NCBI GenBank assembly: GCA_963789725.1
Contig: CAWBLU010000003.1
Span: 387,170-451,169, forward strand
Length of the DNA: 64,000 nt
Source of the DNA: an uncultured Chloroflexia bacterium
GTDB taxonomy: Bacteria > Chloroflexota > Limnocylindria > Limnocylindrales > CSP1-4
Direction: 5' to 3'
In this document: positions 3,461-36,035 of the stretch, piece after piece
How the letters are laid out: every line of letters starts with the position of its first letter
Numbering within the stretch: position 1 is the stretch's first letter
The notes under the pieces: model-generated
The model's input: only the letters and a program-made list of their open reading frames with translations
Database searches by the model: none
What the model was told of the DNA's origin: nothing
Made by a program: the position numbers and the translations under genes

Positions 3461-3865
3461 ATGACTGATCGACCGCTCAAAGTCCTCATCGCCAAGCCCG
3501 GGCTCGATGGGCACGATCGCGGAGCGAAGGTGCTCGCCCGCGGCCTGCGCGACGAAGGCTTCGAAGTCGTCTATACGGGACTGCGCCAGACGCCCGAGAT
3601 GATCGTGACCGCCGCTCTCCAGGAGGACGTCGACGTCGTTGGGCTGTCGATCCTGTCCGGCGCGCACATGACCCTTGTGCCTCGCATCTGCGCGCTGCTG
3701 CGGGACCGGGGCATGACCGACGTGCTCGTCACTGCCGGCGGGATAATCCCCGACGACGACGTGCCGGCCCTCAAGGAGGGTGGCGTGGCCGCGGTTTTCG
3801 GTCCCGGTACGACAATCGCCGAAGTGGCCGATTTTTTGCGCGCCAACGCCAGGCCGCGAGACTAG
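3461..3865 (+). CDS. methylmalonyl-CoA mutase-type B12-binding domain protein (stand-alone small subunit)
   Basis: 134 aa with [18 protein letters not shown]...GLSILSGAH...[11 protein letters not shown], the B12-binding Rossmann module of acyl-CoA mutases. Confidence 0.8.
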
Positions 3866-3875
3866 CGCGACCCGC

Positions 3876-4937
3876 GTGGCCAGGGCCTACCCCTCCGCCA
3901 TCGACCGGCCCGCGATTGCGGAGCGAGCCCGGTCCCTGTGCGACGCCGCCCTGGCGGGCGATCGCCGGGCGCTGGCGCGGTTGCTGACCGCCGTCGAGAA
4001 CCGGACACCGGTCGCCGAGGTTGCGCTTCGGCGTCTCTATCCGCTGGCCGGCAAAGCCCAGTTGGTCGGCGTCACCGGGCCCCCGGGGGCAGGCAAGAGC
4101 ACGCTGGTGGCCGCGCTGATCGCGGAATTGCGCCGCGCCGGCCGCCCCGTAGCGGTCGTCGCGGTCGATCCGTCCAGCCCCATCACCGGCGGTGCGGTCC
4201 TGGGCGACCGCGTCCGGATGCAGGCCTACGCCGCCGACGACGGTGTCTTCATTCGTTCGATGGCGTCGCGCGGCCACGCCGGCGGACTCTCGTCGGCGAC
4301 GACGGCCGCGGCCGCCGTCTTCGACGCCGCCGGCTTCGACACGATCCTGATCGAGACGGTCGGGACGGGCCAGAGTGAGGTCGAGGTAGCGGCCACGGCC
4401 GACACGACCGTCGTGGTCGAGGCTCCGGAGATGGGCGACGAAATCCAGGCGATCAAGGCCGGCCTCCTCGAGGTCGCGGACCTGATCGTCGTCAACAAGG
4501 GCGATCGGCCCGGGGCCCACCGGACCGCCGGCCAGCTCCACGCCATGCTCGCCGACGCTCCGCGCGAGGCTCGGCCGGGCCGGCCGGCGCCCAAGCACCC
4601 CGACGTGCTGGTAACGACCGCCGCGACTGGGGAGGGCGTCCCGGAGTTGCTGGCGGCGCTCGACCGCCACCGCCTCACCGCCCGCGGGTCTGAAGGAGCC
4701 GCTGCCCGGGTCGCTCGTGCCGAGGCGCAGATCTGGTCGGTGCTCTCGGACCGGCTGCACGAAAGAGCCAGATCGCTGGAGTCGGCGCCGCTGGCCGGGG
4801 CCCTGCTCGACGCCGTCGCCGCCCACGAACTCGACCCGTACGCCGCCGCGGATCGACTCCTGGCGTTGATGGCCGGCGCCGCCTCGCCGGACGCCTCGCC
4901 GCCCGCCCGAGAGCCGGAGCGCGACCAGGCCGGCTAG
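3876..4937 (+). CDS. meaB: MeaB/ArgK-family G-protein chaperone of methylmalonyl-CoA mutase
   Basis: Walker A GPPGAGKST followed by PITGGAVLGDRVRM. GTG at 3876 is the first plausible start after the upstream stop; the longer ORF from 3780 overlaps the preceding gene. Confidence 0.8.
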   Translation: MARAYPSAIDRPAIAERARSLCDAALAGDRRALARLLTAVENRTPVAEVALRRLYPLAGKAQLVGVTGPPGAGKSTLVAALIAELRRAGRPVAVVAVDPSSPITGGAVLGDRVRMQAYAADDGVFIRSMASRGHAGGLSSATTAAAAVFDAAGFDTILIETVGTGQSEVEVAATADTTVVVEAPEMGDEIQAIKAGLLEVADLIVVNKGDRPGAHRTAGQLHAMLADAPREARPGRPAPKHPDVLVTTAATGEGVPELLAALDRHRLTARGSEGAAARVARAEAQIWSVLSDRLHERARSLESAPLAGALLDAVAAHELDPYAAADRLLALMAGAASPDASPPAREPERDQAG

Positions 4938-7900
4938 GCTCCGGGCCCTCGAGACGCGGCGTCGCTCTCCGCCGCGGCCGCCAGGGCCTCGCGAACCACT
5001 CGGATGACCGCGTCGATGTCGAACGGCTTGGCCAATAGTCGAATGCCCCGTTGCGTCGCGAAGCCTCGCAGGTCCGGGTTCAGGACGTCGCCGCTCATGA
5101 ACACGGCTCGCTGTGCCAGCTCCGGTCGGTACGACACGGCCGCCTCGTAGAACTCGGTTCCGCTCATGCCGGCCATACGGTGGTCGATCAGCATCACATC
5201 GAAAATGATCTCGCGGATGCCGTCCAGCGCCTGGGCCCCATCGGCGAACGGCAAGCAGTCCATGCCGGCGGCGTTGAGCGCCTTCCTAAGGAAGGCACGG
5301 ATCGAGGGCTCGTCGTCGAGGGCCAGCACCCGAGGGCGCGGCGCGTCCCCGGTCCCCTGGTTGGCCGGGATCGGCGGCGCGGCCGCAGGTTCCGCCGGCG
5401 TGGGTTGCGCGACCGGGTCGGCCGGTCGCTCGGCCAGATGCTCCGGAACCGGGATTCCGAGGCTGTCGTCCAGCCCTCGAGCCGAGACCGGCAGCTCCAG
5501 GATGAAACTGCTGCCTGTGCCGCGGGGCCCCGGCTCGTACCAGAGAAGCCCGCCGTGCGCGGCGACGATACCGAACGAGACGGAGAGGCCCAGCCCGGTG
5601 CCCTCGCCCGGCTGCTTGGTCGTGAAGAAGGGGTCGAAAAGGCGCGCCCGAGCCGACTCCGGCACGCCCGGTCCGTCGTCTCGGATCGTGATGCGGACGC
5701 GGCCGCCATCGTCTATCGGCCTGTTCGTCCGGGCGGCCCCGCCGGACGGTCTGGTCTTGACCATGGCCGCGCTCACCCACAGGTGGCCGGGAGCCTTCCG
5801 ATCGCGTCCGCGCAGCGCCTGGATGGCGTTGATGGTCAGGTTGAGAAGCACCTGCTGCAGCTGGGCGCGGTCCAGGTCCACCTCCGGCAGGGCAGCCGCG
5901 ATATCGACGGCGACCTGGATCTGGTTGGTGTTGAGGGCATACGACTGCAGTTCCAGCACGCTCTGGACCAGGACGTTGATGCTGGTCGGTCGTCGCTCCG
6001 GCTGCCTGGCCCGGGCGAAGTCGAGCAGGTTCTGGACGATGCGCCGGGTTCGGTCGGCTTCCTGGACGAGCAGGCCGGCGTCGTGTTTCATGTCGTCCGG
6101 GAGCCGCTCGTCGCTGCGCATCAGCTGGCTGAAGGCGATGATCGCAGCCAGCGGGTTGTTGAGCTCATGAGCCACGCCCGAAACCAGCTGGCCGATGGCC
6201 TCCATCTTCTGCGCCTGCAGGAGTTCTCTCTGGAGCCGCTCCTGGTCGGATAGGTCGCGCACGAGGTGAAGGAACCGTCGCTGGCCGCCCAGCTCGACGA
6301 CGCGCACTTCGACCTCGACCGGGAACTCGGAGCCGTCCGGCCGCCGTCCCCGGTCCCGGAAGGTGCCCCTGCCCTGAGCCCAGACGATCTGGCGACGGCG
6401 GGCCATCTCCCGTTCGTCGGCCGTGACGAGCTGGCCGAAGTAGCGGCCCAGGACCTCGCCCCTGTTCATGCGGTACAGCCGGACGGCGGCCTCGTTGACG
6501 TCGAAGACCGTGCCGTCCAGGGCGGAGACAAGCAGCGCGTCGGGCGACTCCTCGAACAGGGTGCGGTATCGCTCCTCCGACGAGACCAGCCGCTCGCGGA
6601 GGCGGTAGTTGGCCAGGGCGATGCCCGCGATCCTGGCCACGGAGTCCAGGGCCGACTCGTCCAGCGACAGCATCGCCGCGGGGGATTCGAAGAAGCACAG
6701 CAGGGCGCCGGCAAGCTCCTCGCCGGTCCGAATCGGGATTGACGCGAACGATTGGAAGCCAGTGGCGCGGGCGAGAGGCAGGACACGTTCGTTCACCTGG
6801 CTGGCCACGAAGTCGCCCAGAACGCTGCTCCCGCCCGAGAGGAGCAGGCTGCCGCCGGGGGCGTCCTTCGCCGGTACGCCCTTGAGCCAGAGCCTGAATG
6901 CGCCGGTCTCCCCAGCTACCGCATGGGTCTCGAAGTGGCGGCCGGGCTCGATGAGCAAGTAGCAGACGCCTTCGGCTCCGAGGGCCTCGCGGACGAGGCT
7001 GACGGTCCGGTGGGCAAGCTCCTCGAAAGTGCTTGCCTCTTCCCCGATACGGGTCAGCTCGTCGAGGGTGTCGAGGCGATGGCCCAGGGCCCGCTGGGCG
7101 GCGGCTCGATGGAGCAGCTCCGAGCGCAGCCGGAAGTTGGCGAGCGAGATGCTGCAGACGCGAGCGATCGGCTCGAGGAAGTGGACGTCGTACTGTTCGC
7201 CGGGCTGGGATTCGGCCCACTCCAGGTGGATGACGCCCGCAAGCCGATCGTCGACCCGGAGCGGGAGCACGGCCTGCGAGAGACGAGAACCGGTCTCCGA
7301 TCCGTTGCCGGCGAGAGACGGCGATCGCCAGATGCCGTTACTCGACTGGAATTGCGACAGCGGCGGCCAGTCATCGGGCGGTTGCGACGGCTCGCCGTCC
7401 TGCGGCCATCTACCACTCTGCGGACCCACCCACGCGACCGGGTCTACCCGGGCCGACGACGGGTCGACGAGGATGTAGCCGCCAGCGATCGCCCCAGTGG
7501 CAAGAACGACGGCGTCGATGGTTTCCTGCGCGAGACGAGTCAGGTCGTCGGTCGAAGCGCCGAGCAGCGTAAGTTCCTGGAGGGCCCGCAGCTCGGCGGT
7601 AAGGCGGCGCTCATGCTCGGCCGCCTCAGCCAGGCCCTCGCTCATGCGGGCGTTGTCGTAGGCGATCGAGATTATCCGGCCCACGGCCTCGACATTTCGC
7701 GCGTCGGCCTGCGGCCGCTTCTCGGCCGACTCGTGGAAGTAGCAGATGAACGCTCCGACCAGACGGTCGCCCTCGCGGACCGGAAACGCGGCATGGCCGG
7801 TCACGCCGGACGCGATCATCCGCTCCACTCCGGGCTCGGTCCCGACGGCGTTGGCGAGAGGCTCCTGGAAGGCGCCACCGTGCTCGCTCGATTTGAGCCG

Positions 7901-10630: not shown

Positions 10631-10705
10631 GGGCCCGTAGCTCAACGGTAGAGCAAATGACTCTTAATCATTAGGTTCTCGGTTCGAATCCGAGCGGGCT
10701 CACCA
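10631..10705 (+). tRNA. tRNA-Lys (anticodon CTT)
   Basis: Folded by hand into a cloverleaf: 7-bp acceptor stem GGGCCCG/CGGGCUC with one G-U pair, D arm GCTC-AACGGTA-GAGC, anticodon stem AATGA/TCATT with loop CTCTTAA, T arm CTCGG-TTCGAAT-CCGAG, and an encoded CCA end. Confidence 0.85.
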
Positions 10706-23692: not shown

Positions 23693-23799
23693 GGCGTAGG
23701 GCGTAGGGCGTTGGCGTCCGGGCGTAGGGCGTAGGGCGTAGGGCGTCCGGGCGGTTCGGCGGGCACTCGCCCGGCTCTCCGTCCGGCCGTCGTGCTAAC

Positions 23800-23966
23800 C
23801 TACCGCCAACCTTTGTTGCCGGCTCTGTGAGGCCGGCTTCCGGTCGATCCAGGCCGGGCATGCGGTCCAGAGAGGCCGCGGAGGAGCGAATGTTCGTCTG
23901 CGAGTCAAACCACCGCGCCGGTTCGGCCGGTGGCTTTTTTGTCCGGCCCGGCACTATCGGGGCCGG
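23800..23966 (+). promoter_or_regulatory. PyrR-dependent translation-coupled attenuator (leader) of carA
   Basis: Hairpin GCCGGC-tctgtgag-GCCGGC (23824-23843), then a PyrR box GGUCCAGAGAGGCCGCGGAGGAG (about 23864-23886) that overlaps the Shine-Dalgarno sequence of a leader ORF. Terminator CCACCGcGCC-ggttc-GGCCGGTGG followed by CTTTTTTGT (23910-23942). Confidence 0.7.
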
Positions 23967-23970
23967 ATGA
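23890..23970 (+). CDS. carA leader peptide (26 aa, MFVCESNHRAGSAGGFFVRPGTIGAG)
   Basis: ATG is 7 nt after GGAGGAG. The ORF runs through the terminator and its TGA overlaps the carA ATG (ggATGAtg). Confidence 0.5.
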   Translation: MFVCESNHRAGSAGGFFVRPGTIGAG

Positions 23971-25229
23971 TGCCTTCGGTGTCGCACGCCCTCAAGCAGC
24001 CGCCGTTTCCGCGGCCCAGCTCGGTCGTCGACCCGAGGGTTGGCGACTACGGCCCGGCCCTGCTCGCGCTCGAGGACGGGCGTTTATTCCCGGGCATCGC
24101 CTTCGGTTCGCAGCGCGCCGGCCAGGGCGACCTCGTCGTGAACACGAGCCAGACTGGCTACCAGGAGATCGCCACCGATCCCTCGTATGCGGGCCAGCTC
24201 GTAGTGATGACATACCCGCTGATCGGCAACTACGGCCGGGTCCACTATGACGACCAGTCCGAGAGGCCCTGGCTGCGCGGCCTGATCGTGGCGAACGCAA
24301 CGGCCGCAGTTCTGGACGATGCCCGGCAGCTGGCGACGATGCTGCGTGAGGCCAGCATCCCGGCAATCGCCGGCGTCGACACGCGCGCCCTCGCCCGTCA
24401 CCTCAGGGCCCACGGTAGCCTGCGGGCCATCGTGACCGCGCCGGGCGAGACGGACCCGGAAGAAGCGAGGGCTCGGGCTCGGGCCGTGCCGCGGTGGGAG
24501 GATCAAGATTTTGTGGCCGCGGTTTCGCCCGTCTCTGCTCGAGACGAAGGCGACGCGTCCGAGGGAGGCCCGCTCGTCGCCATCCTCGATTTCGGCCTCA
24601 AGACGAACATCGTGCGCAGCCTTCGCCGGCGCGGCGCCCGGGTGCGAATCCTGCCTCACACCGCGACGGCGGCCGACGCGCTGGCGCCGGAGATCGACGG
24701 CGTGGTCTTTTCGCCAGGTCCGGGCGATCCGGCCAGGCTGGACGGCCCGGTCGCGCTTGCTCGCCAGGTCATAGCCGACGGCCGGCCGCTGCTCGGAATC
24801 TGCCTGGGCCATCAGATCATCGGCCGCGCCGCCGGGGCAGACACTCGCCGGCTTCCGTTCGGCCACCATGCCGCCAACCATCCGGTCAAGGACCTCGAGA
24901 CGGGCCTGGTGCAGGTAACGGCCCAGAACCACGAGGTCACTGTCATCGCCGAGACGCTGCCGGACGCGAGCGGCTTCGTGGTCAGCCAGATCGACCTCAA
25001 CGACGGGTCCGTCGAAGGTCTGCGCCACCGCGCGCTGCCGATAGAAACGGTCCAGTACCACCCCGAGGGCGGCCCCGGCCCATTGGATGCGCTTGCGGTC
25101 TTCGACCGTTTCGTGACGGCCGCCCTGGCCCACCACGGCGGAGGAGAGCCGGTGCCGACGGTCGGCGCCGTCGAGCCACTCCACCTGGACACGGCGGAGC
25201 TGGCACGGCGCCTTCAGGGGATGAGCTAG
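23967..25229 (+). CDS. carA: carbamoyl-phosphate synthase small (glutaminase) subunit
   Basis: N-terminal domain ALLALEDGRLF..GxxxGEVVFNTSxTGYQE-like segment. C-terminal class I glutamine amidotransferase with LGICLGHQ (catalytic Cys) and the Y/H of the triad. Confidence 0.9.
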   Translation: MMPSVSHALKQPPFPRPSSVVDPRVGDYGPALLALEDGRLFPGIAFGSQRAGQGDLVVNTSQTGYQEIATDPSYAGQLVVMTYPLIGNYGRVHYDDQSERPWLRGLIVANATAAVLDDARQLATMLREASIPAIAGVDTRALARHLRAHGSLRAIVTAPGETDPEEARARARAVPRWEDQDFVAAVSPVSARDEGDASEGGPLVAILDFGLKTNIVRSLRRRGARVRILPHTATAADALAPEIDGVVFSPGPGDPARLDGPVALARQVIADGRPLLGICLGHQIIGRAAGADTRRLPFGHHAANHPVKDLETGLVQVTAQNHEVTVIAETLPDASGFVVSQIDLNDGSVEGLRHRALPIETVQYHPEGGPGPLDALAVFDRFVTAALAHHGGGEPVPTVGAVEPLHLDTAELARRLQGMS

Positions 25230-25295
25230 AGTCGGACACGCCCCGGAGCCGATGGGGAAGTTGACGAGCATGCCCACGGCCAGGATGGGAGAGCG

Positions 25296-25720
25296 ATGCG
25301 ACAGGTCGACAGCCTTGGCCACGCGGACGCGGAGCGGGCGATCGAGGCCGTTCAATCGGAGTTGTTGCGCCGCGACAAGACGGCGGTGGTCGCCGTGGCC
25401 GACGCTCAGGGCGAGCTCGTCGGCCTGCTGCGTCTGGACGGTGCACCCTTGCCCTCGATCACCATCGCGACGAACAAGGCCTGACCGCGGCCCGCGAGCG
25501 AAAGCCGACACTGGAGATCGGCCAGGCGGCCCTTGATCCGGAGCGCGTCTTCGACATCGCCTACTACGGTGATCTCCGGTACGTCGGGTGGGGCGGGGGA
25601 GTGCCGGTCCTGGTGCGAGGTCAGGTCGTTGGAGCGGTGGCTGTGAGCGGGCTCACACAAGAGGAGGACGCGGAGCTGGCCGGACTCGGCGCGGGCGCGG
25701 TCGTCGCGGGATTGGGTTGA
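25296..25720 (+). pseudogene. GlcG/HbpS-like DUF336 protein, apparently disrupted by a 1-nt frameshift
   Basis: Frame A (25296-25484) encodes ...VAVADAQGELVGLLRLDGAPLPSITIATNKA*. The downstream portion is in another frame, from about 25481 to 25720: LTAARERKPTLEIGQAAL...GGGVPVLVRGQVVGAVAVSGLTQEEDAELA. Together these make a typical roughly 135-aa DUF336 protein, with the shift at about 25478-25485. Confidence 0.55.
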
Positions 25721-25897
25721 CCTGAGCGGTCGGGCCTCGCCCGAACCTTTTCGACCAGGAACCCCGCGCTGGTCTCCCCCGGCCGGTATTCGGTGGGCTT
25801 CCGCGGCGCGAGACGGTACGTCGAGGGCCCACCCCAGACCGGCCTCAAGATCCAGAATGCGGTCTAGCCGATAACTCGATTACTCGCCGGTGAAGCG

Positions 25898-27226
25898 GTG
25901 AAGCTACTCCGAGCGCTCCTCATCGCTCTTCTTGCCGCGGCTGTCACGGCCTGCGACCTCTCCCCAACGCCCCTGCCGGCGTCCTCGCCGACCGGTCGCG
26001 TCACGCCGGCAAGGCCAACAGCGGGCGCCACCCCTATCGCCGCCCCTGCGACCAGCGTCGCGGTTACACCCACGGACCATCTCATAGTGGTGCGAGAGGC
26101 AGGCGGTGTCGGAGAGTTCTACGACCGCGCCACGGGCGCGAAGTTTGTGCCGCGCGGCATGAACTACATCCGCCTGGCGAACCAGACCAAGGCCGACGGG
26201 TCGGTCACGTTCGGCCATTCCGTGTTCGATCCCGGCCGGTACGACCAGCCCCGCGTGGGCGGCGCCCTGGAGAAGATTCACGCCGACGGTTACAACACCG
26301 TCCGCGTGTTCCTCAGTCCGGACACGATGGGCACGGCCGACGGCGGTCTCTCGCCCGAGTACATGAAGAACGTCGCCGATTTCCTGCGTCTGGCGAGCGC
26401 TAACGCCATCTACGTGATGTTCACCCTCGACTGGATCCCCGGCGGCAAGTACGGCGCGATCTTGAACACGGATTGCTGTTCGGCCTTCGCCCTGATGAAT
26501 GCCAACTTCCTGCCTCCTGCTGGCCTCGAGGCGAATCAGGTCTTTTACCGGGACTTCATTCACGGATTGCTGGACCTCGGAGCGCCCACGGAGTACGTAT
26601 TCTCGTACGAATTGAGAAACGAGATGTTCTACGACTCGGACTTGCCGCCGCTCTCGTTCAAGTCGGGCGTCGTGACGACGGCGAATGGCAAGTCGTACGA
26701 CATGGCCAAGGCGTCGGACAAGGATCTGATGGTGCGCGAAAACCTCGTGTACTGGATCGACCATATGCGCGCCTCGATCCAGGAGGTCGATCCGACTGCG
26801 CTCGTGAGCGTCGGCTTCTTCCAGCCGCAACAGCCGAACCCGACCCGAGAGGAGGACCCGCGTCTCGCGATGACCGAGCCGGCCATCTGGCAGTCCACGG
26901 CCGACTTCGTCGACCTGCACGCGTACCCGGGGTCCGGCTTGACCCTCAAGCAGTATGTCGAGAACTTCGGCATCAACGGCATGAAGCAGAAGCCGATTGT
27001 CATGGGCGAATTCGGCGGCGAGATCTCCCGGTTCCCGTCCGTCTCGGTGGCGGCGCAGACATTCGCGGCCTGGCAGGCGGAATCCTGCTCCTACGGCTTC
27101 GACGGCTGGTTGTTCTGGTCCTGGGATCTGAGCGAGCAACCCGACTTCTTCAACGCCTTGATGTATCAGGGCGCGATCAACGGCGTGCTCGCCCCCGTCG
27201 CGCGGCCGGATCCCTGCTCGGTTTAA
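25898..27226 (+). CDS. secreted lipoprotein, TIM-barrel glycoside hydrolase-like (GH5-like)
   Basis: GTG start; signal peptide with lipobox LLAAAVTAC, a Pro/Thr/Ala linker, then a domain with RGMNYIRL...GYNTVRVFL...DWIPGG pattern resembling GH5-type (beta/alpha)8 hydrolases. Family assignment is tentative. Confidence 0.45.
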   Translation: MKLLRALLIALLAAAVTACDLSPTPLPASSPTGRVTPARPTAGATPIAAPATSVAVTPTDHLIVVREAGGVGEFYDRATGAKFVPRGMNYIRLANQTKADGSVTFGHSVFDPGRYDQPRVGGALEKIHADGYNTVRVFLSPDTMGTADGGLSPEYMKNVADFLRLASANAIYVMFTLDWIPGGKYGAILNTDCCSAFALMNANFLPPAGLEANQVFYRDFIHGLLDLGAPTEYVFSYELRNEMFYDSDLPPLSFKSGVVTTANGKSYDMAKASDKDLMVRENLVYWIDHMRASIQEVDPTALVSVGFFQPQQPNPTREEDPRLAMTEPAIWQSTADFVDLHAYPGSGLTLKQYVENFGINGMKQKPIVMGEFGGEISRFPSVSVAAQTFAAWQAESCSYGFDGWLFWSWDLSEQPDFFNALMYQGAINGVLAPVARPDPCSV

Positions 27227-27376
27227 GGACGGCGAGTTGCGCCGGCCGGGACGACGGGGTCGACAGGCCGACCCTATGCCGGTCCTGGCGCCGATACCGC
27301 GGCCCACCTCGAGAGACGTAGATTGGCGTCATCGCCGGTCGGGGTAGGAAACAGGGCCGGCGACGGAGGCAACTCG

Positions 27377-27610
27377 ATGGACCCGATCACCGCCAGGATG
27401 CTCAGCCAGGCTCACATTTCCGAACTCCACGCCGAAGGCGCCGCCAACCGCATGGCGGCCGCGGCCCACAAGAAGAGCCGGGTCGAGTCGCCGTGTCGGA
27501 TCGAGGCGGTCGGTCGAAAGCCCCGAGTGGAGCTTCCGCAGGTCGACTGCTCCTGGTTCGAGCGACTCTGGGCGACGATCCGCCGCGCTATCCCTGCGCG
27601 CGCCGCCTGA
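27377..27610 (+). CDS. hypothetical small protein
   Basis: ATG preceded by GGAGGC; 77 aa; no recognisable domain. Confidence 0.3.
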   Translation: MDPITARMLSQAHISELHAEGAANRMAAAAHKKSRVESPCRIEAVGRKPRVELPQVDCSWFERLWATIRRAIPARAA

Positions 27611-27630
27611 CCTCGCCCGGGCGAAGCCGC

Positions 27631-27828
27631 TCAGCGCCGCACTGGGCGGCACATTTGCCCACTGGCCCCGCGCCGCGCGACGTTTAGCGAAAGCGACTCG
27701 CTGTGGTCGCGCTCGATCAGCGACATCGTCCCCTGAGCAACCCCGGCTATGCCCGCCAGCTCAAGCTGGCTCATCCCGCGCCGCTTTCGAACGGCCCTGA
27801 TGACAGCTCCGAACTGGACATCGTTCAC
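27631..27828 (-). CDS. XRE-family (Cro/CI-type HTH) transcriptional regulator
   Basis: IRAVRKRRGMSQLELAGIAGVAQGTMSLIERDH is a canonical HTH_XRE. Divergent from the membrane-protein gene. Confidence 0.7.
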   Translation of the reverse strand: MNDVQFGAVIRAVRKRRGMSQLELAGIAGVAQGTMSLIERDHSESLSLNVARRGASGQMCRPVRR

Positions 27829-28078
27829 GCGGCGATTGTCAACGAGGCCACTTCACGACCGCTTATCTGCGAAGCTATGTCCGCCAGTTCTGTTGGATGC
27901 GCGAAGCCGGCTGGAGGCGGGAGCCCGTGGTGATGACGGTCAAGAGTCGTGACCTCGCCGCGGCCGCATCGAACCTGGGGGCGGCGCCACCCGCGACGCC
28001 ATCCTCGGCCGCATCGAACCTGGGCGCGGCACCACCCTCGGCACCACCCGCGGCAGCGGCGACCGATGTGGGCCCCCG

Positions 28079-28585
28079 ATGAAACTGCACAGCGGCCTGA
28101 CGGTCAACGGCCGATCGTACTCCAAGGGCGACGAGATCCCGGGGTTCTTCGTCTACCCCTTCTTCCTCGTGCACATGCTGGCGTTCGGCGTCTCGGGCTT
28201 CGTCCTGGCCTACAGCGGCGCGCCAGCGCTGTTTCTGTTCATGCACGGCGGCATCGCGATCTTCGTCTACACCGTCTTCTATCTGGCCATCTTCGGCCTG
28301 GACGAAGTCAAGTGGATGTTCATCAACGCCGGACTGGGGATCTTCGGGATCCTCAGCCAGATCGACTGGTTGCTCTCCCTGTTCGGCCGCCGGGTCGCCG
28401 ACTACCCGGTCTACGTGCACATCATTCCGTTCCTCTACTTCGTGCTCTACACGTTCCTGATCCGTCACGCCCTGCTCGATCTGCTGGGCGCCCGAGACGA
28501 CGACGCGAAGAGGACCCGGGTGCAGTACGGCTACATCGGCGCGTCGGTGGCCTTCTACGTGTTCGCGCACGTGCTCGAGGGCTGA
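28079..28585 (+). CDS. hypothetical integral membrane protein (5 predicted TM helices)
   Basis: 168 aa with five strongly hydrophobic 20-25 aa segments. Start overlaps the stop of a short upstream repeat-containing ORF (ATGA). Confidence 0.55.
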   Translation: MKLHSGLTVNGRSYSKGDEIPGFFVYPFFLVHMLAFGVSGFVLAYSGAPALFLFMHGGIAIFVYTVFYLAIFGLDEVKWMFINAGLGIFGILSQIDWLLSLFGRRVADYPVYVHIIPFLYFVLYTFLIRHALLDLLGARDDDAKRTRVQYGYIGASVAFYVFAHVLEG

Positions 28586-28641
28586 CGGCGAGCGTCGCGC
28601 GGACCCCGCTCGTCTGGCCGCGCGTGCGGCCTTTCGCTTCG

Positions 28642-29670
28642 TCAGCCGTCCCAGCGGACCCGGACGTGCTGCCGGATACCGGGCAGCGGCATCGACGCGG
28701 CCTCCGCCTCCACAGCCGCTCGTTCCGCGGTCGAGAGCCGGCGCCACGACTCGATCGTGACGTTGGTTTGCGCGCGTCGCCACGTCCCGGCAATCTCGCC
28801 GCTCACAAGGACGGCCCCGGGCCAGACTCGGGGCGTCCAGAGCGCGCGACGATTGTCGGGGTCAGGGACCAGCAATTCCCGATCGGCTCCTTGCAGTAGG
28901 AAGTAGGCGTCCCCGCTCGGGAGAAGCCGAGCGAGCGCCGCCGATCCGCCGGGGGCACGGAACGCCGGCTCGTCTTCGGCCAGGATCCATGCGTCGCCGG
29001 CCGGCGTTCGGACCGGCGTCAGCGATTCGCCGAGCGCGGCGAACGCGGCCCGGCCGGCGGCGGCTCTCGGCCTGATCCCGGCCCACTCGGCAAATGCGGC
29101 GGGCGTGGCCGGCCCGAAGATGTGCAGGTAGCGGCGCGCAAGCTCGAGGCGTGCCTGGCGCGGGTCGACGCCCGGTGGCGGCACGGTCCAGATGGCCGGC
29201 TGCCGCGCCCCATCCCACCGGATCAGCACCGTGCCGGTCGGCGCGGCATACCTCAGGCTGTTCGGGTGCACGCCGAGCGCGTGCCCCACTTCGCCGTAGT
29301 TCATCCTTCGACCGTCGAGGAAGCCGTGTAGCCGGAGGGCGAGATCGTCCGCCCGGCGTCGCAATTCGCCGCCTTCGGCGAGCCGCCCGAGCGAGAAGAT
29401 CGCGAGGTCAACCTCGGCGACGACGTAAACGCTCCACCGAGGTCCCCAAACCTGCACGAGCGACGCGTCCTCCCAGGTTTCCGGTCTGGTCCCCTGAACG
29501 CGTGCATGGATCGACAGGACCGCCGCGCGAGGCACGCTGTCCTGCAGCCCCGCCCAGGCCGCCCGTCTGAGCGACACAGGGCCGGGCGGCAACCGCTCGT
29601 CGAGACCACCGACCGATCGTCGGTACCTGAGGATCTGCTCGCGCGTCAACTCGAGCCGGGCCGAGGCCAT
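28642..29670 (-). CDS. winged-helix DUF1006 protein, YcaQ/AlkZ-like (putative DNA glycosylase family)
   Basis: N-terminus LTREQILRYRRSVGGL...AAVLSIHARV and C-terminus LLPSGDAYFLL...RVWPGAVLVSGEIAGTWRR resemble the YcaQ/AlkZ HTH_42 family. The Q-phi-(Q/D) catalytic motif is not clearly conserved (LQD). Confidence 0.5.
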   Translation of the reverse strand: MASARLELTREQILRYRRSVGGLDERLPPGPVSLRRAAWAGLQDSVPRAAVLSIHARVQGTRPETWEDASLVQVWGPRWSVYVVAEVDLAIFSLGRLAEGGELRRRADDLALRLHGFLDGRRMNYGEVGHALGVHPNSLRYAAPTGTVLIRWDGARQPAIWTVPPPGVDPRQARLELARRYLHIFGPATPAAFAEWAGIRPRAAAGRAAFAALGESLTPVRTPAGDAWILAEDEPAFRAPGGSAALARLLPSGDAYFLLQGADRELLVPDPDNRRALWTPRVWPGAVLVSGEIAGTWRRAQTNVTIESWRRLSTAERAAVEAEAASMPLPGIRQHVRVRWDG

Positions 29671-29855
29671 TCGATGTCATCTCCGCGGAGAGCGGGTTCG
29701 CGCGACCACTGTAGCGGGCCACATCAAGCCGCTGCGAGTCGGCCCAGGCGCCGCGCGGGGACTAGCGCTCATGAACAGCGGCACGATCAGGGCCCGAGCA
29801 GCTCCTGGCTAGAGTAATGTGCTACCGTGTGCTACATGAAGACTGCGGCGCGAAC

Positions 29856-30158
29856 ATGAGCGAAGGGGAGGCACCCGCGCGTGTGGGGGTGCGCGAGCTT
29901 CGGCAGAACCTCTCCGTGTATCTGCGGCGCGTGGAGAGAGGGGAGACTCTCGACGTGACCGAACACGGTCGCCTGGTGGCGCGCCTTGCGCCGGCGCCGG
30001 CTCCGGAGGTGAGTATCCTGGACAGGTTGATCGCGGAAGGTCGAGCCACGCCGGCCAGCCGTTCGATCGGCGACCTTCCGGAACCGATCAAACTGGCGCC
30101 GGGCTCTGAGAGCGTCTCGGATGTGCTCCGCCGGATGCGCGAGGAAGAACGCTGGTGA
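29856..30158 (+). CDS. Phd/YefM-family type II antitoxin
   Basis: VGVRELRQNLSVYLRRVERGETLDVTEHGRLVARLAP is a Phd/YefM signature. Stop overlaps the vapC start. Confidence 0.7.
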   Translation: MSEGEAPARVGVRELRQNLSVYLRRVERGETLDVTEHGRLVARLAPAPAPEVSILDRLIAEGRATPASRSIGDLPEPIKLAPGSESVSDVLRRMREEERW

Positions 30159-30556
30159 GCCAGACCTATGTCGACTCGTCGGCCCTCGTGAAGTTGATCG
30201 TCGATGAGCCAGAAACCGATGCGCTGCGGCGGCATATCGCCTCGGCCGGGCCGCTTGCGTCCAGCATTCTCGCAACCGTCGAGGTCTCGCGGGCGGTCGC
30301 TCGGGTCGCGCCTGCATCGATGGCCGAGGTCGCCGCCGTGCTCCAGGCGCTGAACGTTATGGCCTTCGACGCCCGAATCGCCGCCCGCGCAGCCGCGCTG
30401 GGTCCGGCCAGCCTGCGTGCCCTCGATGCCATCCACCTGGCGACGGCTCTCGAGTTGCGGGACGAGCTGACTGCCTTCATCTCCTACGATGAGCGCCTGC
30501 TGGCAGCAGCCCGCGACCTGGGCCTGCCCGTGGTCGCGCCGAGCGGCTACTTGTGA
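30155..30556 (+). CDS. vapC: PIN-domain toxin VapC
   Basis: YVDSSALVKLIVDE ... DAIHLATA ... ISYDERL is a PIN fold with the acidic residues in place. Confidence 0.75.
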   Translation: MSQTYVDSSALVKLIVDEPETDALRRHIASAGPLASSILATVEVSRAVARVAPASMAEVAAVLQALNVMAFDARIAARAAALGPASLRALDAIHLATALELRDELTAFISYDERLLAAARDLGLPVVAPSGYL

Positions 30557-30792
30557 AGCGGACTCTGAAGGCTGACGAGTTCGACACGAGGTTCGACACG
30601 GGGCAGGACGTCACAGGCGACCTCGACCGGTCTGCTGCCCGCCGCCCCCTTCAGAAGGCCAGGCGCGTCAACGTGGACTTCCCGTCATGGATGGTCGAGT
30701 CGCTGGACCGCGAGGCGAAGCACCTCGGCGTCACCCGCCAGTCGGTCATCAAGATGTGGATCGCGGAGCGGCTGGAGAAGCGGGCGTCGTAG
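30553..30792 (+). CDS. ribbon-helix-helix CopG/BrnA-like antitoxin-family protein (orphan)
   Basis: GTG start overlaps the vapC stop. [15 protein letters not shown]...[38 protein letters not shown] matches the BrnA/CopG-antitoxin architecture. No BrnT-like toxin is adjacent. Confidence 0.55.
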
Positions 30793-31281
30793 GTAATGGG
30801 ACCAGGCGCTGGCATCGAACGTTGTCCGAGGTGAGTGAGCTACGAGTACACCCGCGAGCCGCGGCGTCTTCGCGCCAGCGCCGACGGCGCGGGCTCATTC
30901 TGAGTGAAACGTGGCGCTGAGAATGAGCCATCCCGCTCGCTGCCGTAGAAATCGCCCGAGGCAGACAGCAACTCTTGGAGGCACTTCGCCGAGCCCCCGG
31001 GCAAAGGACGTTTCGGCCGAGCTTCTCAGCCAACTCCCTGTCGCCGTGGACGACCCGGAGCCCGCGCCGAACCTTCGTCTCGGACGGGTATCCCTCTCCT
31101 CCGCTTACCGGTCGGCTCGAAAGGAGGGGAGGTTCTCGAATTCGCTGTGGCGCATCATGTCGGGCCCTGGACCGCTCAGCAGCCAGCGTTTCATTCCGGC
31201 CGATCATCCGGTTTCGCCCGTGGCCCGGGAGTTATGCTCAACGGCAAGTTGTTGGCCAGCGACGTCGTGGGGGTGGCGTGA

Positions 31282-32301
31282 ATGGACCCTGTGTATCAAT
31301 GGAAGGCCATTGAGAGCTCCTTCAGTTCCGGCCTAGTTCTTGGCAACGGAAGTTCCATTGCTTTCGACCGGAGGTTCGCTTACGGCTCTCTCAAGGGACT
31401 CGCCGTAGAAGAGGGCCTCATCACTGCCGACGTGGACAAGGTCTTTCGCCACCTCGACTCCGATGACTTCGAATTAGTGATGCGAATGCTCTGGCACGCC
31501 AGCCAAATCAACCAGGCACTCGAAGTCGAGGACCCAAGGACGTCGGCAGCCTACTCCTCGGTCCGAGATGCTCTGATCGCGGTGGTACAGGCTGTACACG
31601 TACCGTATGGGGCGGTCTCTGATCGCCTTCCCTTGGCTGCTGACTTCATGTCGCGCTTCTCCACCGTCGTCTCCCTCAGCTACGACCTCCTGGTCTACTG
31701 GGCCATCCTTTCGGCGAATGACGAACGGGCAAATCGCTTCAAGGATTGCTTCATTAGGGGGCAATTCAATCAAGACTGGCAGTGGCTTCGGCAACCCTAC
31801 CGCTCGAATTGGGCGAGCACTCTCGTGTTCTATCCGCATGGCAACCTCGCCCTGGCGGCTACGCTTAGCGGGGCTGAGTTCAAGATCCAAGTCGACGGAG
31901 GCGCTCTCCTGGAGACCGTTTTCGATCGTTGGCGCGAAGATGCGACCCCTTTGTTCGTAAGCGAGGGCACGTCCGAGCAGAAGCGCGCGGCGATCCGTCG
32001 AAGCCCGTATCTGTCCGCCGTCTACGACGAAGTCCTACCGGAGCTGGGAGAGAGCGTAGTGACTCTGGGATGGTCAATGGGCGAGAACGACGACCATCTT
32101 CTCGAAGCGATCTGTCGAAGAGGAACCCGGAGATTCGCCGTGGCGGTCGATCCCAACTCAGACCGCCTCGCTGAGAGCCAAGCCAATGTGCGCCGCCGGA
32201 TCAGCGGTCTGCTTCGTGAAGAATTGGGCGAAGTCGTCTTCTATGATTGGACCAGCCCAGGTTGTTGGATCAATCTCGATCCCGCGGAGGTCGACAGATG
32301 A
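31282..32301 (+). CDS. SIR2-like (SIR2_2/DUF4917-type) domain protein, candidate NAD-dependent defence effector
   Basis: 339 aa with LVLGNGSSIAF (GxGxS NAD-binding motif), SLSYDLLVYW (NYD-type motif) and FYPHGNL (HG motif), in the order and spacing seen in SIR2-like domains such as ThsA. Gene GC is about 57% against a roughly 70% background. Confidence 0.55.
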   Translation: MDPVYQWKAIESSFSSGLVLGNGSSIAFDRRFAYGSLKGLAVEEGLITADVDKVFRHLDSDDFELVMRMLWHASQINQALEVEDPRTSAAYSSVRDALIAVVQAVHVPYGAVSDRLPLAADFMSRFSTVVSLSYDLLVYWAILSANDERANRFKDCFIRGQFNQDWQWLRQPYRSNWASTLVFYPHGNLALAATLSGAEFKIQVDGGALLETVFDRWREDATPLFVSEGTSEQKRAAIRRSPYLSAVYDEVLPELGESVVTLGWSMGENDDHLLEAICRRGTRRFAVAVDPNSDRLAESQANVRRRISGLLREELGEVVFYDWTSPGCWINLDPAEVDR

Positions 32302-32384
32302 TCCCCTGGTGTTCTCGCCTGGCATGGGACGCCGCTTTCTAGCGATTAGGGCCATCTTCTGCGTCGGGTGCTGCTATCCTTCCC

Positions 32385-32534
32385 CCAGCCCTTGAGGCCG
32401 GGTCTGTGAGCCCGGCGGAAGTCAAAGAGACGGCTTGCCGGCGCTTTGACTCGCGGTCCTGAGAGGCCGGGGAGGAGAACGATGCGCCCGTGTAAGCTGA
32501 ACCACCGCGCCCGCGAGGCCGGTGGCTTTTTTGT
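32385..32534 (+). promoter_or_regulatory. PyrR-dependent translation-coupled attenuator (leader) of carB
   Basis: Hairpin GCCGGG-tctgtgag-CCCGGC (same loop as the carA leader, compensatory stem changes). PyrR box GGUCCUGAGAGGCCGGGGAGGAG at 32456-32478. Terminator CCACCGcGCC-cgcga-GGCCGGTGG then CTTTTTTGT (32502-32534), with a stem identical to the carA leader. Confidence 0.7.
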
Positions 32535-32538
32535 ATGA
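32482..32538 (+). CDS. carB leader peptide (18 aa, MRPCKLNHRAREAGGFFV)
   Basis: ATG is 5 nt after GGAGGAG. The TGA overlaps the carB ATG (gtATGAcg). Shares ...NHRA..AGGFFV with the carA leader peptide because both span the same terminator. Confidence 0.5.
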   Translation: MRPCKLNHRAREAGGFFV

Positions 32539-35500
32539 CGGATGAGCCCTTGACACTTCCTGCAACTCAGCCCCTCGTGGCGCCGCGAGCGGAGCGGCGC
32601 AAGCCTGAGAGCGCGCTCATCATCGGTTCGGGGCCGGTCGTGATCGGGCAGGCGGCCGAGTTCGACTACGCCGGCACGCAGGCCTGCCGCGCCCTCCGCG
32701 CCGAGGGCGTCCGAACCATCCTGGTCAACTCGAACCCCGCGACGATCATGACCGACGCGGAGGTGGCCGACGCCGTCTACCTCGAGCCGCTCACCGTCGA
32801 GGCCATCGAGCAGGTCATCGCCAGAGAGCGGCCCGAGGGGCTCCTCGCCGGCCTTGGCGGCCAGACCGGCCTCAACCTGGCCGTGGCCTTGGCCAAGGCC
32901 GGCGTCCTCGACAAGTACAACGTCCGGCTCATCGGAACGCCGCTCGAGGCGATCGAGATGGCCGAGGACCGCGAGCTGTTCCGTGACCTGCTCGACCGGA
33001 TCGGCCAGCCGTACGCGCCCAGCTGCATCGTCGAGGGCGAGACGGATGAGGCGCGCGACAAAGCGGCCAAAGAGGCCCTGGCCGAGATCGGCCTCCCAGC
33101 GATCATCCGGCCGGCGTTTACGCTCGGGGGCACCGGGGGCGGCATCGTCGAGACGGAGGCGGCGTACTGGGAGCGCACCCGCACCGGCCTTCGGCTGAGC
33201 CCGATCAACCAGGTCATGATCGAGCGCTGCCTGGTGGGCTGGCAGGAGATCGAATACGAGGTCATGCGCGACGCGGACGACACCTGCATCGCCGTCTGCT
33301 CGATGGAGAACGTCGACCCGCTGGGCGTCCACACCGGCGACTCGATCGTGGTCGCGCCGGTCCAGACGCTGCCGGACCCGGTCCACCAGCGCCTCCGCAG
33401 TGCCGCGCTCTCGATCATCCGGGCGCTCGGCGTGGAGGGCGGCTGCAACGTCCAGTTCGCGCTTTCGCCGGACTACACCGAATACGCGGTCATCGAGGTC
33501 AACCCGCGCGTCAGCCGATCCTCCGCGCTGGCGAGCAAGGCGACCGGCTACCCGATCGCGCGTGTCGCGGCGCAGATTGCCGCAGGGCGGCGCCTGGCAG
33601 AAATCCCGAACGTAGTGACCGGCACGACGGTCGCGGCTTTCGAACCGGCGCTGGACTACGTCGTCGTCAAGCTGCCCCGCTTCCCGTTCGACAAGTTCCC
33701 CACGGCCGACCGATCGCTGGGCAGCCAGATGAAGGCGACCGGCGAAGTGATGGCGATCGACCGAACGTTTGGGTCGGCGCTGAACAAGGCCTTGCGCGCG
33801 CTCGAACAGGCCGGCGCCGGCTTCCTGGCCGAGAACGCCGCCTGGCGGGCGACGCTCGACTACCTGATGGAGCCCGCGGTAGCCCAGCCGATGGTGACGG
33901 TCGACGGCGGCGGGCTGCTGTGCGAGGCCCGGGCCCATGCCGAACGAGCCGCCTATCCGATCGTCCTCAAGCGGTTCCTGGCCCCATCCGACTCGCGGCT
34001 GTGGCGGATCCTGGCACTGCTGCGGCGCGGCATGCCGGCCGAGCGGATCCGCGGCGTGACCGGCATCTCGGCCTGGTTCCTGCAGGAGTTCGAGCGAGCG
34101 ATCACGCTCGAGCGCGACGTTCGCCGGATGGGCGCGCGCATGACCGATCCACGGGACGAGGAGACGGCCGAACTCCTGGCGACGGTGAAGCGGGCCGGCT
34201 TCGGGGATCGCGAGCTGGCGCAGATGGCCGGCGTGCCGGCCGAGTCGATCCGGCTGGCCCGGATGGAGCTGGGCCTCGTGCCCGGCTACGCGATGGTGGA
34301 CACGTGCGCGGCCGAGTTCGCCGCGGAGACGCCCTACTTCTACGCCACGTACGCCGCGGCCGGCTCGGAGCCGGAACTGCCGCCCGTGGAGCGGCCAGCG
34401 GCGCTGGTGATCGGCAGCGGCCCGGTGCGGATCGGGCAGGGGATCGAGTTCGACTATTGCGCCGTCCAGGCCGCCGCCGAGCTGCGCGCCCAGGGCTGGC
34501 AGGCCGTGATGATCAACTCCAACCCCGAGACGGTCTCGACCGACTTCGACGCCTCGTCACGCCTCTACTTCGAGCCGCTTGATCCCGAAAGCGTCCGTTC
34601 GGTCGTGGAAGCCGAGTCGCCGGCTGGCGCCGACGGCGTTGCCGCGCCGCTGCTCGGCGCATTCGTCCAGTTCGGCGGCCAGACGCCCCTCAACCTGGCC
34701 GAGCCGCTCGCGGCCGCCGGTATCCCGCTCCTGGGCGCGAACCTCGAGACGATCGACCAGGCCGAGGACCGCATCCGCTTCGCGAACCTGGTCGAGTCGC
34801 TCGGCATTCCCCAGCCCGAAGGCGGCATGGCCCGATCGATAGAGGAGGCGCTGGCGCTGGCCGACCAGATCGGCTACCCGGTGATCGTTCGGCCCTCGTT
34901 CGTCATCGGCGGCCTGGCCATCGACTTCAGCTACTCGCCGTCCGATCTCGTAAACCAGCTGGAGCGCGCGACCGTCGTCGATCCCGACCGGCCGGTCCGG
35001 ATCGACCGCTATCTGGAAGGTGTCGAGGTGGACATCGATGCCGTGGCCGACGGCGAGACGGTCCTCATTCCCGGCCTGCTCGAACACGTCGAACGGGCCG
35101 GCGTTCATTCCGGCGACTCGGTCGGGATGTTTCCGCCGCAGACCGTGTCCGTGGCGGACCAGGAGTTGATCGTCGCCGCCATGGACCGCATCGTGCGTGC
35201 CCTCGACGTCCACGGCCTGGTCAACGCCCAGTTCATCGTCCGAGAAGACGGCGTCTACTTGATCGAGGTGAACCCGCGGGCCAGCCGAACCGTGCCGTTC
35301 ATGAGCAAAGTGACCGGCGTGCCGATGGTCAAGCTGGCCGTCCGGATCGCCCTGGGCGAGAAGCTGGCGGACATGGGGTGGGGGAACGGGCTGCTGGCGC
35401 CGCCTCCCCTGGTCGCGGTCAAGGCCCCGGCATTCTCCACGGCCAAGCTGCGCGGCGTGGATCCGTCCGTGGGGCCGGGGATGCAGTCGACCGGCGAGGT

Positions 35501-36035
35501 CATCGGCATCCACCAGGACCCGCGCGTGGCCCTCGCCAAAGCGATGCAGGGCGCCGCGCTGATCCCGCCGCGGCCGGGTGCCGGCGGCGCGCTGGCGCTC
35601 ATCTCCGTCGCGGAACGAGACCACGGGGAGTTGCCGCGAGTGGCCGCCGCCCTGTCTCGCGCCGGCTACCGGTTCGCGGCAACGTCCGGCACCGCGGCCG
35701 AGCTGGCCGCTCTCGGCTTCGCGGCCCAGGTCGTGGCCAAGGTCGGCGAGAAGCCGGTCGACGGCGAGATCCCGATCCTCGACCTGATCGCCGGCGGCAC
35801 CGTCCGGCTCGTGGTAAACACGCCGGCCCCCAAGTCCGGCCCGGTCCGCGACGCCGCGGAGATCCGGCTCGCCGCCACGGCGGAAGGCATCCTGTGCCTG
35901 ACCGCGATTGAGACCGCCGTCGCCGCGGCCGAGGCCCTGGACCCGGACCTGCGGTCGCGCCTGGCCGAAGTTCGTTCCCTGGGCGATTGGGTGCCGGACC
36001 CGGGTGTGCCGCGGCCCGCGCTGAAGCTGAGCTAG
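32535..36035 (+). CDS. carB: carbamoyl-phosphate synthase large subunit
   Basis: Two ATP-grasp halves (ALIIGSGPVVIGQAAEFDYAGTQA...; ALVIGSGPVRIGQGIEFDYCAVQA...), an oligomerisation domain and a C-terminal MGS-like domain. Confidence 0.92.
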   Translation: MTDEPLTLPATQPLVAPRAERRKPESALIIGSGPVVIGQAAEFDYAGTQACRALRAEGVRTILVNSNPATIMTDAEVADAVYLEPLTVEAIEQVIARERPEGLLAGLGGQTGLNLAVALAKAGVLDKYNVRLIGTPLEAIEMAEDRELFRDLLDRIGQPYAPSCIVEGETDEARDKAAKEALAEIGLPAIIRPAFTLGGTGGGIVETEAAYWERTRTGLRLSPINQVMIERCLVGWQEIEYEVMRDADDTCIAVCSMENVDPLGVHTGDSIVVAPVQTLPDPVHQRLRSAALSIIRALGVEGGCNVQFALSPDYTEYAVIEVNPRVSRSSALASKATGYPIARVAAQIAAGRRLAEIPNVVTGTTVAAFEPALDYVVVKLPRFPFDKFPTADRSLGSQMKATGEVMAIDRTFGSALNKALRALEQAGAGFLAENAAWRATLDYLMEPAVAQPMVTVDGGGLLCEARAHAERAAYPIVLKRFLAPSDSRLWRILALLRRGMPAERIRGVTGISAWFLQEFERAITLERDVRRMGARMTDPRDEETAELLATVKRAGFGDRELAQMAGVPAESIRLARMELGLVPGYAMVDTCAAEFAAETPYFYATYAAAGSEPELPPVERPAALVIGSGPVRIGQGIEFDYCAVQAAAELRAQGWQAVMINSNPETVSTDFDASSRLYFEPLDPESVRSVVEAESPAGADGVAAPLLGAFVQFGGQTPLNLAEPLAAAGIPLLGANLETIDQAEDRIRFANLVESLGIPQPEGGMARSIEEALALADQIGYPVIVRPSFVIGGLAIDFSYSPSDLVNQLERATVVDPDRPVRIDRYLEGVEVDIDAVADGETVLIPGLLEHVERAGVHSGDSVGMFPPQTVSVADQELIVAAMDRIVRALDVHGLVNAQFIVREDGVYLIEVNPRASRTVPFMSKVTGVPMVKLAVRIALGEKLADMGWGNGLLAPPPLVAVKAPAFSTAKLRGVDPSVGPGMQSTGEVIGIHQDPRVALAKAMQGAALIPPRPGAGGALALISVAERDHGELPRVAAALSRAGYRFAATSGTAAELAALGFAAQVVAKVGEKPVDGEIPILDLIAGGTVRLVVNTPAPKSGPVRDAAEIRLAATAEGILCLTAIETAVAAAEALDPDLRSRLAEVRSLGDWVPDPGVPRPALKLS

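Follow-up and report, generated by a model that had tools for sequence, protein, structure and literature searches.

Between carA and carB, in a 64,000-nt stretch of contig CAWBLU010000003.1 from an uncultured Chloroflexia bacterium (the whole of which is called the window here), lies a gene whose 339-amino-acid (aa) product belongs to the Pfam family DUF4917 and carries motifs resembling those of SIR2 enzymes. The locus raises the question of whether a single protein of this size could act as an effector of defense against phage by consuming nicotinamide adenine dinucleotide (NAD+). A preliminary description of the window had put forward a defense-type SIR2 effector, and this central idea is reasonable. 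We favor, with a probability of roughly 55%, the reading in which the DUF4917 gene is a horizontally acquired ~1.2-kb cassette that encodes a compact, infection-triggered, NAD+-consuming effector with a SIR2 fold. The same description regarded such a gene as belonging to no described system, a view that does not hold: the family is already listed in PADLOC as candidate PDC-S21, and one member, SliP of Campylobacter jejuni, has been studied biochemically. That is to say, the gene is not a new kind of system and belongs to a known, catalogued candidate family. What is new here is the hotspot argument for a defense role, the natural Asn/Ser/Cys variation at one motif position, and the carA-carB hotspot with its repeated element.

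The DUF4917 gene is intact, foreign in composition and under selection

The open reading frame (ORF) named in the preliminary description is intact (Table 1), and its product scores far beyond chance against DUF4917 (PF16263; 269.7 bits versus a cutoff of 28), with residues 18-329 spanning positions 1-311 of the 311-position profile. Full-length hidden Markov model (HMM) matches are obtained to both the PDC-S21 and the DUF4917 models (E=4e-99 and 5e-80, respectively), where the individual PADLOC protein models for PDC-S21 are PDLC04961 (E=4.4e-99) and PDLC04960 (E=1.1e-54). The low GC content claimed for the gene is also borne out. Its GC fraction is 0.583 and its GC fraction at third codon positions (GC3) is 0.682, compared with a GC of 0.678 for the window and a GC3 of 0.84 for carA and 0.91 for carB. 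The composition of the gene is foreign.

The exact 339-aa protein was matched in only one 1.7-kb Logan contig. The closest relative, in locus L082, encodes a DUF4917 protein with 82% aa identity and is 79% identical at the nucleotide level over the coding region. Comparison of the two genes over 255 codons gives a ratio of nonsynonymous to synonymous substitution rates (dN/dS) of 0.10, and the DUF4917 gene is therefore under purifying selection. The L082 copy is itself cut after ~residue 255 by an insertion (2278-4439) that carries a Mu-type transposase (rve and Mu-transpos_C) and an AAA_22 ATPase.

The predicted structure resembles defense-type SIR2 enzymes

Inspection of the predicted structure reveals a Rossmann-type fold of the SIR2 kind, and the model supports a SIR2 fold closest to that of the defense-type SIR2 NADases. 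Both checks proposed earlier for SIR2 kinship, by HMM and by structure, thus come out in its favor, in that DUF4917 is matched over its full length and the model has the SIR2 fold. The specific assignment to Pfam SIR2_2 (PF13289) fails, as neither SIR2 nor SIR2_2 matches the 339-aa protein at E<=1. Landmark residues of the product are G21-N22-G23-x-S25, S133-Y134-D135, H186-G187 and G263-W264-S265...D270. The three SIR2 landmarks described previously are all present and in order, within LVLGNGSSIAF (residues 18-28), SLSYDLLVYW (131-140) and FYPHGNL (183-189). The last of these lies ~10 residues from the earlier placement near residue 196, and the middle motif, read earlier as "NYD-like", is S-Y-D; its Ser at the Asn position had been overlooked.

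In the model every SIR2-like motif comes after a beta-strand, as in SIR2 enzymes. The G21-N22-G23-S24-S25 loop follows strand 17-20, and the invariant P185-H186-G187 follows strand 180-183. In an alignment of 29 sequences the invariant positions include G21, N22, G23, S25, Y134, D135, H186 and G187, and His186 of the HG motif is the putative catalytic residue. With three cysteines in all, none of them arranged as a CxxC pair, the protein lacks the zinc module found in deacetylating sirtuins.

DUF4917 proteins stand alone or within restriction operons

An exhaustive profile search returned 3,047 DUF4917 representatives (clusters at 50% identity, E<=0.001). The best 150 of these measure 263-448 aa, mostly ~330-360 aa, from which we take the architecture of the family to be uniformly single-domain. 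Homologs are scattered over Proteobacteria, Nitrospirota, Bipolaricaulota, Chloroflexota, Planctomycetota, Acidobacteriota and archaea and occur on 37 plasmid records, with none in the 50,697 phage records searched.

Across 78 genome loci no neighbor family is found in more than seven, and no small conserved partner gene is present. The absence of a recognizable partner noted in the preliminary description is supported, the neighbors in the window being BrnA and carB. The neighbors that recur in these loci are the type I restriction-modification (R-M) subunits HsdM, HsdS and HsdR, McrBC, and a Dcm-type methylase cluster. In the R-M arrangement the order is hsdM-hsdS-DUF4917-hsdR with overlapping stops and starts, the insertion between hsdS and hsdR being seen in L021, L041, L056, L075 and L076; elsewhere DUF4917 follows McrB-McrC with 4-nt overlaps. 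Other copies are solitary, as on the E. coli IncI plasmid CP057042, where the gene, QMC04525.1 of the Asn type at N-x-D, adjoins HTH-PIN and VapB-PIN modules (HTH, helix-turn-helix), or lie between housekeeping genes, as on an Acinetobacter cumulans plasmid. The R-M-embedded loci agree with the origin of the PDC models, which come from a guilt-by-embedding analysis that named 145 PDC candidates embedded in BREX, DISARM, type I R-M and Hma systems (Payne et al. 2024). A literature search returned no paper tying DUF4917 to a phage assay and none naming PDC-S21.

The only DUF4917 protein studied biochemically is C. jejuni SliP (Cjj81176_0779), whose gene shares an operon with that of a type I R subunit. 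The purified protein consumes NAD+ in vitro, and does so less when its GNG motif is mutated; the effect sizes are small.

A proposed route from infection to NAD+ depletion

Among characterized enzymes, DUF4917 would, as judged from the model, work most like the defense SIR2 NADases, and the steps may be pictured as follows. NAD+ would be bound by the Gly-rich GNGxS loop of the Rossmann core, as the fold, the motifs and the GNG parallel with SliP suggest. The protein would stay silent in uninfected cells until a phage-derived cue activates it, probably with oligomerization as in other defense SIR2 enzymes. Direct sensing of this cue might fall to the helical insertion (residues ~37-123) or to the C-terminal subdomain; for members embedded among hsd or mcrBC genes, the cue could instead be loss of the restriction complex. 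NAD+ would then be cleaved or consumed by way of the invariant Asp135 and His186, leading to depletion of the pool and abortion of the infection, by analogy with ThsA, DSR2 and SIR2-HerA.

A number of observations weigh against this proposal. ThsA and sirtuins need the Asn of N-x-D for catalysis. With Ser in its place the chemistry may differ, or the position may be dispensable, and their mechanism carries over less simply to a protein with Ser133. The protein, all 339 aa of which are covered by DUF4917, shows neither a recognizable sensor domain nor a trigger. The family profile has no match among PDB sequences at E<=10, so that a residue-level mapping onto solved SIR2 structures is impossible. 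Set against a genuine SIR2_2 protein, DUF4917 gives an hhalign alignment of little statistical weight (E=0.008, probability 5%, 262 columns); the pairing keeps the motif order, with GNGxS opposite GAGFS, (N/S/C)YD opposite NYD, PHG opposite LHG (KLHG) and GWS..D opposite GYS..D. A sigma-70 scan found no promoter, a scan that is poorly suited to Chloroflexota and uninformative there. PDC-S21 is one of the 145 predicted candidates of Payne et al. 2024 and has candidate status only, and the authors of the SliP study read their protein as a secreted protein (histone) deacetylase effector of a pathogen.

That last interpretation leads to the main rival, beside which the others are minor: DUF4917 could be an NAD+-dependent enzyme that modifies a specific host or phage protein, as a deacylase or ADP-ribosyltransferase, with no bulk depletion of NAD+. 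We regard this as unlikely. The predicted structure is closer to NADase-type defense SIR2s, the Zn-binding Cys module of deacetylating sirtuins is missing, and the SliP effects are small and come from a protein whose own gene sits in a type I R-M operon. A soil or peat Chloroflexota host, moreover, makes a eukaryote-directed effector implausible.

Ser133 appears to be a tolerated variant

The residue at the first position of N-x-D was counted in 120 DUF4917 proteins, that is, 119 homologs and the query itself (P0001). Asn is found in 88, Ser in 27 and Cys in five. The Ser and Cys types cluster among the nearest relatives of the query, where they are interleaved with Asn types. Because of this recurrence, and given the dN/dS of the gene, Ser133 is a tolerated family variant and no mark of decay.

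The same evidence bears on the possibility that the gene is a catalytically impaired or decaying passenger with no function in the window genome, which we consider highly unlikely. Ser in place of Asn, the lack of a promoter-like site, the transposon-truncated copy in L082 and the pseudogenes in the surrounding island would all fit such a passenger. The frame is nonetheless full length with every invariant family residue kept, selection has acted on it, the Ser and Cys types recur in many intact homologs, and Chloroflexota promoters are poorly captured by a sigma-70 scan.

The gene occupies a strain-variable slot upstream of carB

Comparison with relatives delimits the insertion that carries the gene. 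The close relative L122, whose carB region is 89.8% identical at the nucleotide level, aligns with the window to ~31170 and resumes at ~32371; in between it has ~100 unrelated nt, where the window has ~1,200 nt with DUF4917. The limits of the cassette (Table 1) are set by this break in the alignment, and its presence varies between strains. The accessory insertion suspected earlier is thereby substantiated, in that L122 has the empty site, the cargo varies among relatives and the gene is not conserved at this position in all of them.

Table 1 Coordinates of features in the window, and cargo of the corresponding slot in relatives
Feature	Position	Strand	Evidence or content
carA	23967..25229		Pfam
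Variable island separating carA and carB, 7,305 nt	25230..32534		Pfam, mapping of relatives
Phd	29817-30158	+	NCBIfam TIGR01552 above cutoff
PIN/VapC	30155-30556	+	E=7e-14
Orphan BrnA	30553-30792	+	NF047399, E=6e-35
13-bp inverted repeat, GGCTCATTCTGAG / CTGAGAATGAGCC, 12-nt loop	30892-30904 / 30917-30929		1 mismatch
Conserved 236-nt element, left slot border	30931..31166	-	84-95% identical, 42 metagenome loci
Strain-variable cassette (~115 nt upstream flank, DUF4917 ORF, ~69 nt downstream; GC 0.59)	31167..32370	+	L122 comparison
DUF4917 / PDC-S21 gene	31282..32301	+	339-aa single-domain SIR2-fold protein (predicted)
carB leader, right slot border	32371..32534	+	GGTCCTGAGAGGCC motif; terminator-like hairpin and T-run ending at carB ATG
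carB	32535..36035		Pfam
L100 slot			trypsin-like protease and SIR2_2 (PADLOC SIR2)
L102 slot			TIR_2 (ThsB-like)
L121 slot			CAP12-type TIR (PDC-S35) and RNase H
L120 slot			DUF4062
L117 slot			STAND NTPase
L124 slot			Mrr_cat (PDC-S02 / type IV restriction endonuclease)
L103, L114 slots			BrnT with BrnA
L099 slot			NUDIX

In the 15 relatives that retain both borders, the slot ranges from 106 to 4,082 nt with a GC of 0.56-0.67 and holds differing ORFs, among them the defense and toxin-antitoxin (TA) genes of Table 1 and several other cargos of unassigned kind. The slot upstream of the carB leader is a hotspot for defense and TA genes in this Limnocylindria-like Chloroflexota lineage, where the assignment of the host to a Chloroflexota lineage follows from the names of the form Candidatus Limnocylindra... 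carried by relatives of its carA. In L100 the slot (965-3555, minus orientation) presents the protease and then a stand-alone 345-aa SIR2_2 protein with the motifs GAGFS / TTNYD / KLHGS. It is a second, distinct SIR2-type cargo at the slot of DUF4917. Locus L095 lacks the carB border and shows an array of the conserved element, an Abi_alpha gene (PDC-S47), a degenerate copy of the element, an ORF of 271 aa and a DUF4917 with 63% identity.

Further slot ORFs of 255-1,246 aa are unannotated, including a 1246-aa ORF in L101 (minus orientation), a 489-aa ORF in L124 and ORFs of L108, L106 and L093. Pfam gave no match for those of L124, L108 and L106 and for one of L093, and PADLOC gave none for L124 and L106. 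Their location in the slot makes them candidate defense genes of unknown kind.

Borders of the slot: a conserved element and a carB leader

The preliminary description had assigned the DUF4917 gene a 490-nt leader with a 13-bp inverted repeat inside it. BrnA and DUF4917 are indeed 489 nt apart and the repeat is real, with a single mismatch and a quality equaled in only 3 of 500 dinucleotide shuffles. The leader itself does not stand, as 30931-31166 is an element related to a SEC-C gene, and the gene's own upstream flank is only ~115 nt. The repeat lies between the BrnA stop and this element, with no T-run after it. Homology in relatives begins only at 30921-30931, which leaves the left arm and the loop of the repeat outside the conserved region.

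An exact 23-mer from this part of the supposed leader is present in 42 metagenome stretches, most of which represent the carA-carB island of related organisms and share with the window parts of carA, the GlcG-like and AlkZ-like genes, Phd-VapC, BrnA, the element and the carB leader. On its minus strand the element matches Pfam SEC-C at E=3.7e-10 after one frameshift is mended (a truncated match at E=6.8e-7 is found unrepaired), and by its sequence it is the remnant, or a shortened derivative, of a gene with a SEC-C motif that was encoded on the opposite strand. It contains a 10-bp stem (CCTCCCCTCC/GGAGGAGAGG). Copies in L082-L124 keep a constant orientation, often occur twice per locus and are each followed by a different cargo gene; arrays are present in L082, L086, L088, L094, L095, L101 and L118. 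Full copies include a second hairpin, variable in sequence, and GGGGAGTGTCGCAGAA; in the window both give way to the DUF4917 cassette.

The element occurs in relatives with or without DUF4917 and is not specific to it. One piece of the supposed leader is 95% identical between L082 and the window, the coding region being 79% identical. A mobile repeat or a regulatory leader of DUF4917, as this piece might suggest, was rejected because the element is found in relatives that lack the gene. A structured RNA was dropped as well, since folding of either strand shows no stability beyond that of shuffles (z = +1.3 and -1.2). Rfam returned nothing meaningful for the supposed leader and the cassette (best match c4-a1b1, E=0.63), and inspection by eye of the element revealed no integron attC core of the GTTRRRY type. 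The element may be no more than a relic, or it may act as a promoter region or as an anchor for recombination.

On the other side of the slot, the leader of carB is paralogous to that of carA, with 77% identity between window positions 32360-32545 and 23770-23975. Both present GGTCC(A/T)GAGAGGCC, then a hairpin AACCACCGCGCC...GGCCGGTGG and TTTTTT just 5' of the start codon. In appearance these leaders recall a PyrR-type attenuator; no Rfam family matched, and the likeness is unconfirmed because the gathering-level Rfam scan of the window found a tRNA only. That tRNA gene, at 10631-10702, is the sole such match in the 64 kb. Possession of its own leader by carB may explain why the carA-carB gap tolerates insertions.

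Toxin-antitoxin neighbors share the island with DUF4917

Pfam confirms that an insert separates carA and carB, as described before, and the family models of Table 1 confirm the Phd-VapC-BrnA cassette directly upstream of the gap. The island also contains a GlcG-like pseudogene, a GH5 lipoprotein, an HTH gene and a membrane protein, together with an AlkZ-like DNA glycosylase (28642-29670, minus strand; Pfam E=3e-28), the TA genes, the 236-nt element and DUF4917. The GlcG/HbpS-like frame, directly after carA at ~25290-25720, is a likely pseudogene with an in-frame stop (…ITIATNKA*), and the related gene of L123 is intact (6820-7335). In L123 and L105 only a C-terminal remnant of the AlkZ-like gene is left, fused to the 236-nt repeat element.

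In these Limnocylindria-like genomes carA and carB are set apart throughout the lineage by an island of varying content. In L125, L126 and L127, three relatives with long contigs, the two genes are likewise split by variable content, with DUF4917 in none of the three. The L125 island measures 5.6 kb and that of L126 6.1 kb, and carB of L127 lies beyond the 10-kb downstream flank; its content in these loci is a mosaic of GNAT genes, Phd/PIN pairs, HTH genes, a Kelch-like gene and others.

BrnA begins at a GTG that overlaps the stop of VapC, and the window lacks BrnT. The BrnT-BrnA pairs of L103 and L114 suggest that BrnT was lost here by deletion. An orphan BrnA as the nearest upstream gene invites the idea that DUF4917 is the toxin of a TA-like or addiction module with BrnA as antitoxin or regulator; depletion of NAD+ would be toxic, and PIN modules adjoin DUF4917 on CP057042. 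Given what separates the two genes, we hold this to be very improbable. The 489 nt between them include an unrelated conserved element, BrnA and the element occur in relatives that lack DUF4917, some relatives pair BrnA with BrnT, and no small partner is conserved. No homolog of BrnA, VapC or Phd lies near DUF4917 in 80 other loci, for which reason BrnA was rejected as its antitoxin and the functional tie to the TA genes implied by the preliminary description is not upheld. Adjacency of the TA genes is co-residence in the hotspot, with no functional link to DUF4917. Least credible of all is a role in NAD metabolism, as a housekeeping or regulatory enzyme whose gene came to lie in a variable region by chance. 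The NAD-binding fold and the housekeeping flanks of members such as that on the A. cumulans plasmid might recall such an enzyme, yet it sits poorly with presence and absence among close relatives, foreign composition, patchy spread over phyla and plasmids, and repeated embedding in R-M and McrBC operons.

Relation to known defense systems

The closest match to a catalogued system is PDC-S21, a single-gene, single-domain protein of ~335 aa whose other members lie in type I R-M operons, as in Payne et al. 2024. The window copy differs in its place outside a defense operon, in the carA-carB hotspot, and in its Ser at N-x-D, as in 27 of 120 proteins. SliP shares the Pfam family, the G-N-G motif, consumption of NAD+ in vitro and a place in a type I R-M operon, and differs in its interpretation as a secreted histone deacetylase of a pathogen.

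In contrast, failures of partner, domain or zinc-module tests place DUF4917 outside SIR2-HerA, Thoeris, DSR and the classical sirtuins. Identity with the SIR2 subunit of SIR2-HerA (Nezha; PDB 8w9l, 8yhx, 8j4u, 8sub) is ~12% with no profile-level match, and no HerA partner accompanies DUF4917 in the window or 78 other loci. ThsA of Thoeris has a SLOG or Macro signal-binding domain and a TIR partner, ThsB, whereas DUF4917 consists of the SIR2 unit without either; it has no TIR gene beside it and no ThsA match in PADLOC. DSR1 and DSR2 are proteins of ~1,000 aa with a large C-terminal sensor for which the 339 aa of DUF4917 leave no counterpart, and the structural match to DSR2 covers its SIR2 part only (template modeling score normalized to target, 0.16). 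The SIR2 proteins of AVAST5/Avs5 and KomC have a sensor domain (STAND) or need partner genes (KomAB), in contrast to the lone SIR2 unit of DUF4917. Classical sirtuins (PF02146) have two CxxC pairs and a family match, both of which the DUF4917 protein lacks, and the conserved toxin-antitoxin adjacency of BrnT/BrnA systems is not seen for DUF4917 in the 80 loci.

PrrC and RloC are single-gene abortive-infection effectors encoded between hsdS and hsdR, and both are anticodon nucleases. The hsdS-effector-hsdR arrangement is that of DUF4917 in the five embedded loci named above, although their fold is another one and the window copy has no adjacent R-M system.

Implications for the family and the host lineage

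A more far-reaching picture is distinctly speculative and in our estimate improbable. DUF4917 would be a self-sufficient SIR2 immune enzyme that combines sensing and NAD+ killing in one domain of ~335 aa, the smallest SIR2 defense unit known; the alternation of Asn, Ser and Cys would reflect variant chemistry or specificity; and, as a separate matter, the 236-nt SEC-C-relic element that comes before each cargo in the carA-carB arrays would serve as an integron-like recombination anchor that assembles defense cassettes, with no integrase in view.

The locus offers independent support for the PDC-S21 prediction, as it draws on occupancy of a hotspot in uncultured Chloroflexota and not on embedding in R-M systems. 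With a repeated element on one side and a duplicated, attenuator-like leader on the other, the carA-carB hotspot is a convenient site at which to mine defense genes of this lineage, and natural N-, S- and C-type variants of the family are available for comparison. If DUF4917 proteins defend alone, they would show how a bare SIR2 domain stays silent and is then triggered without a dedicated sensor.
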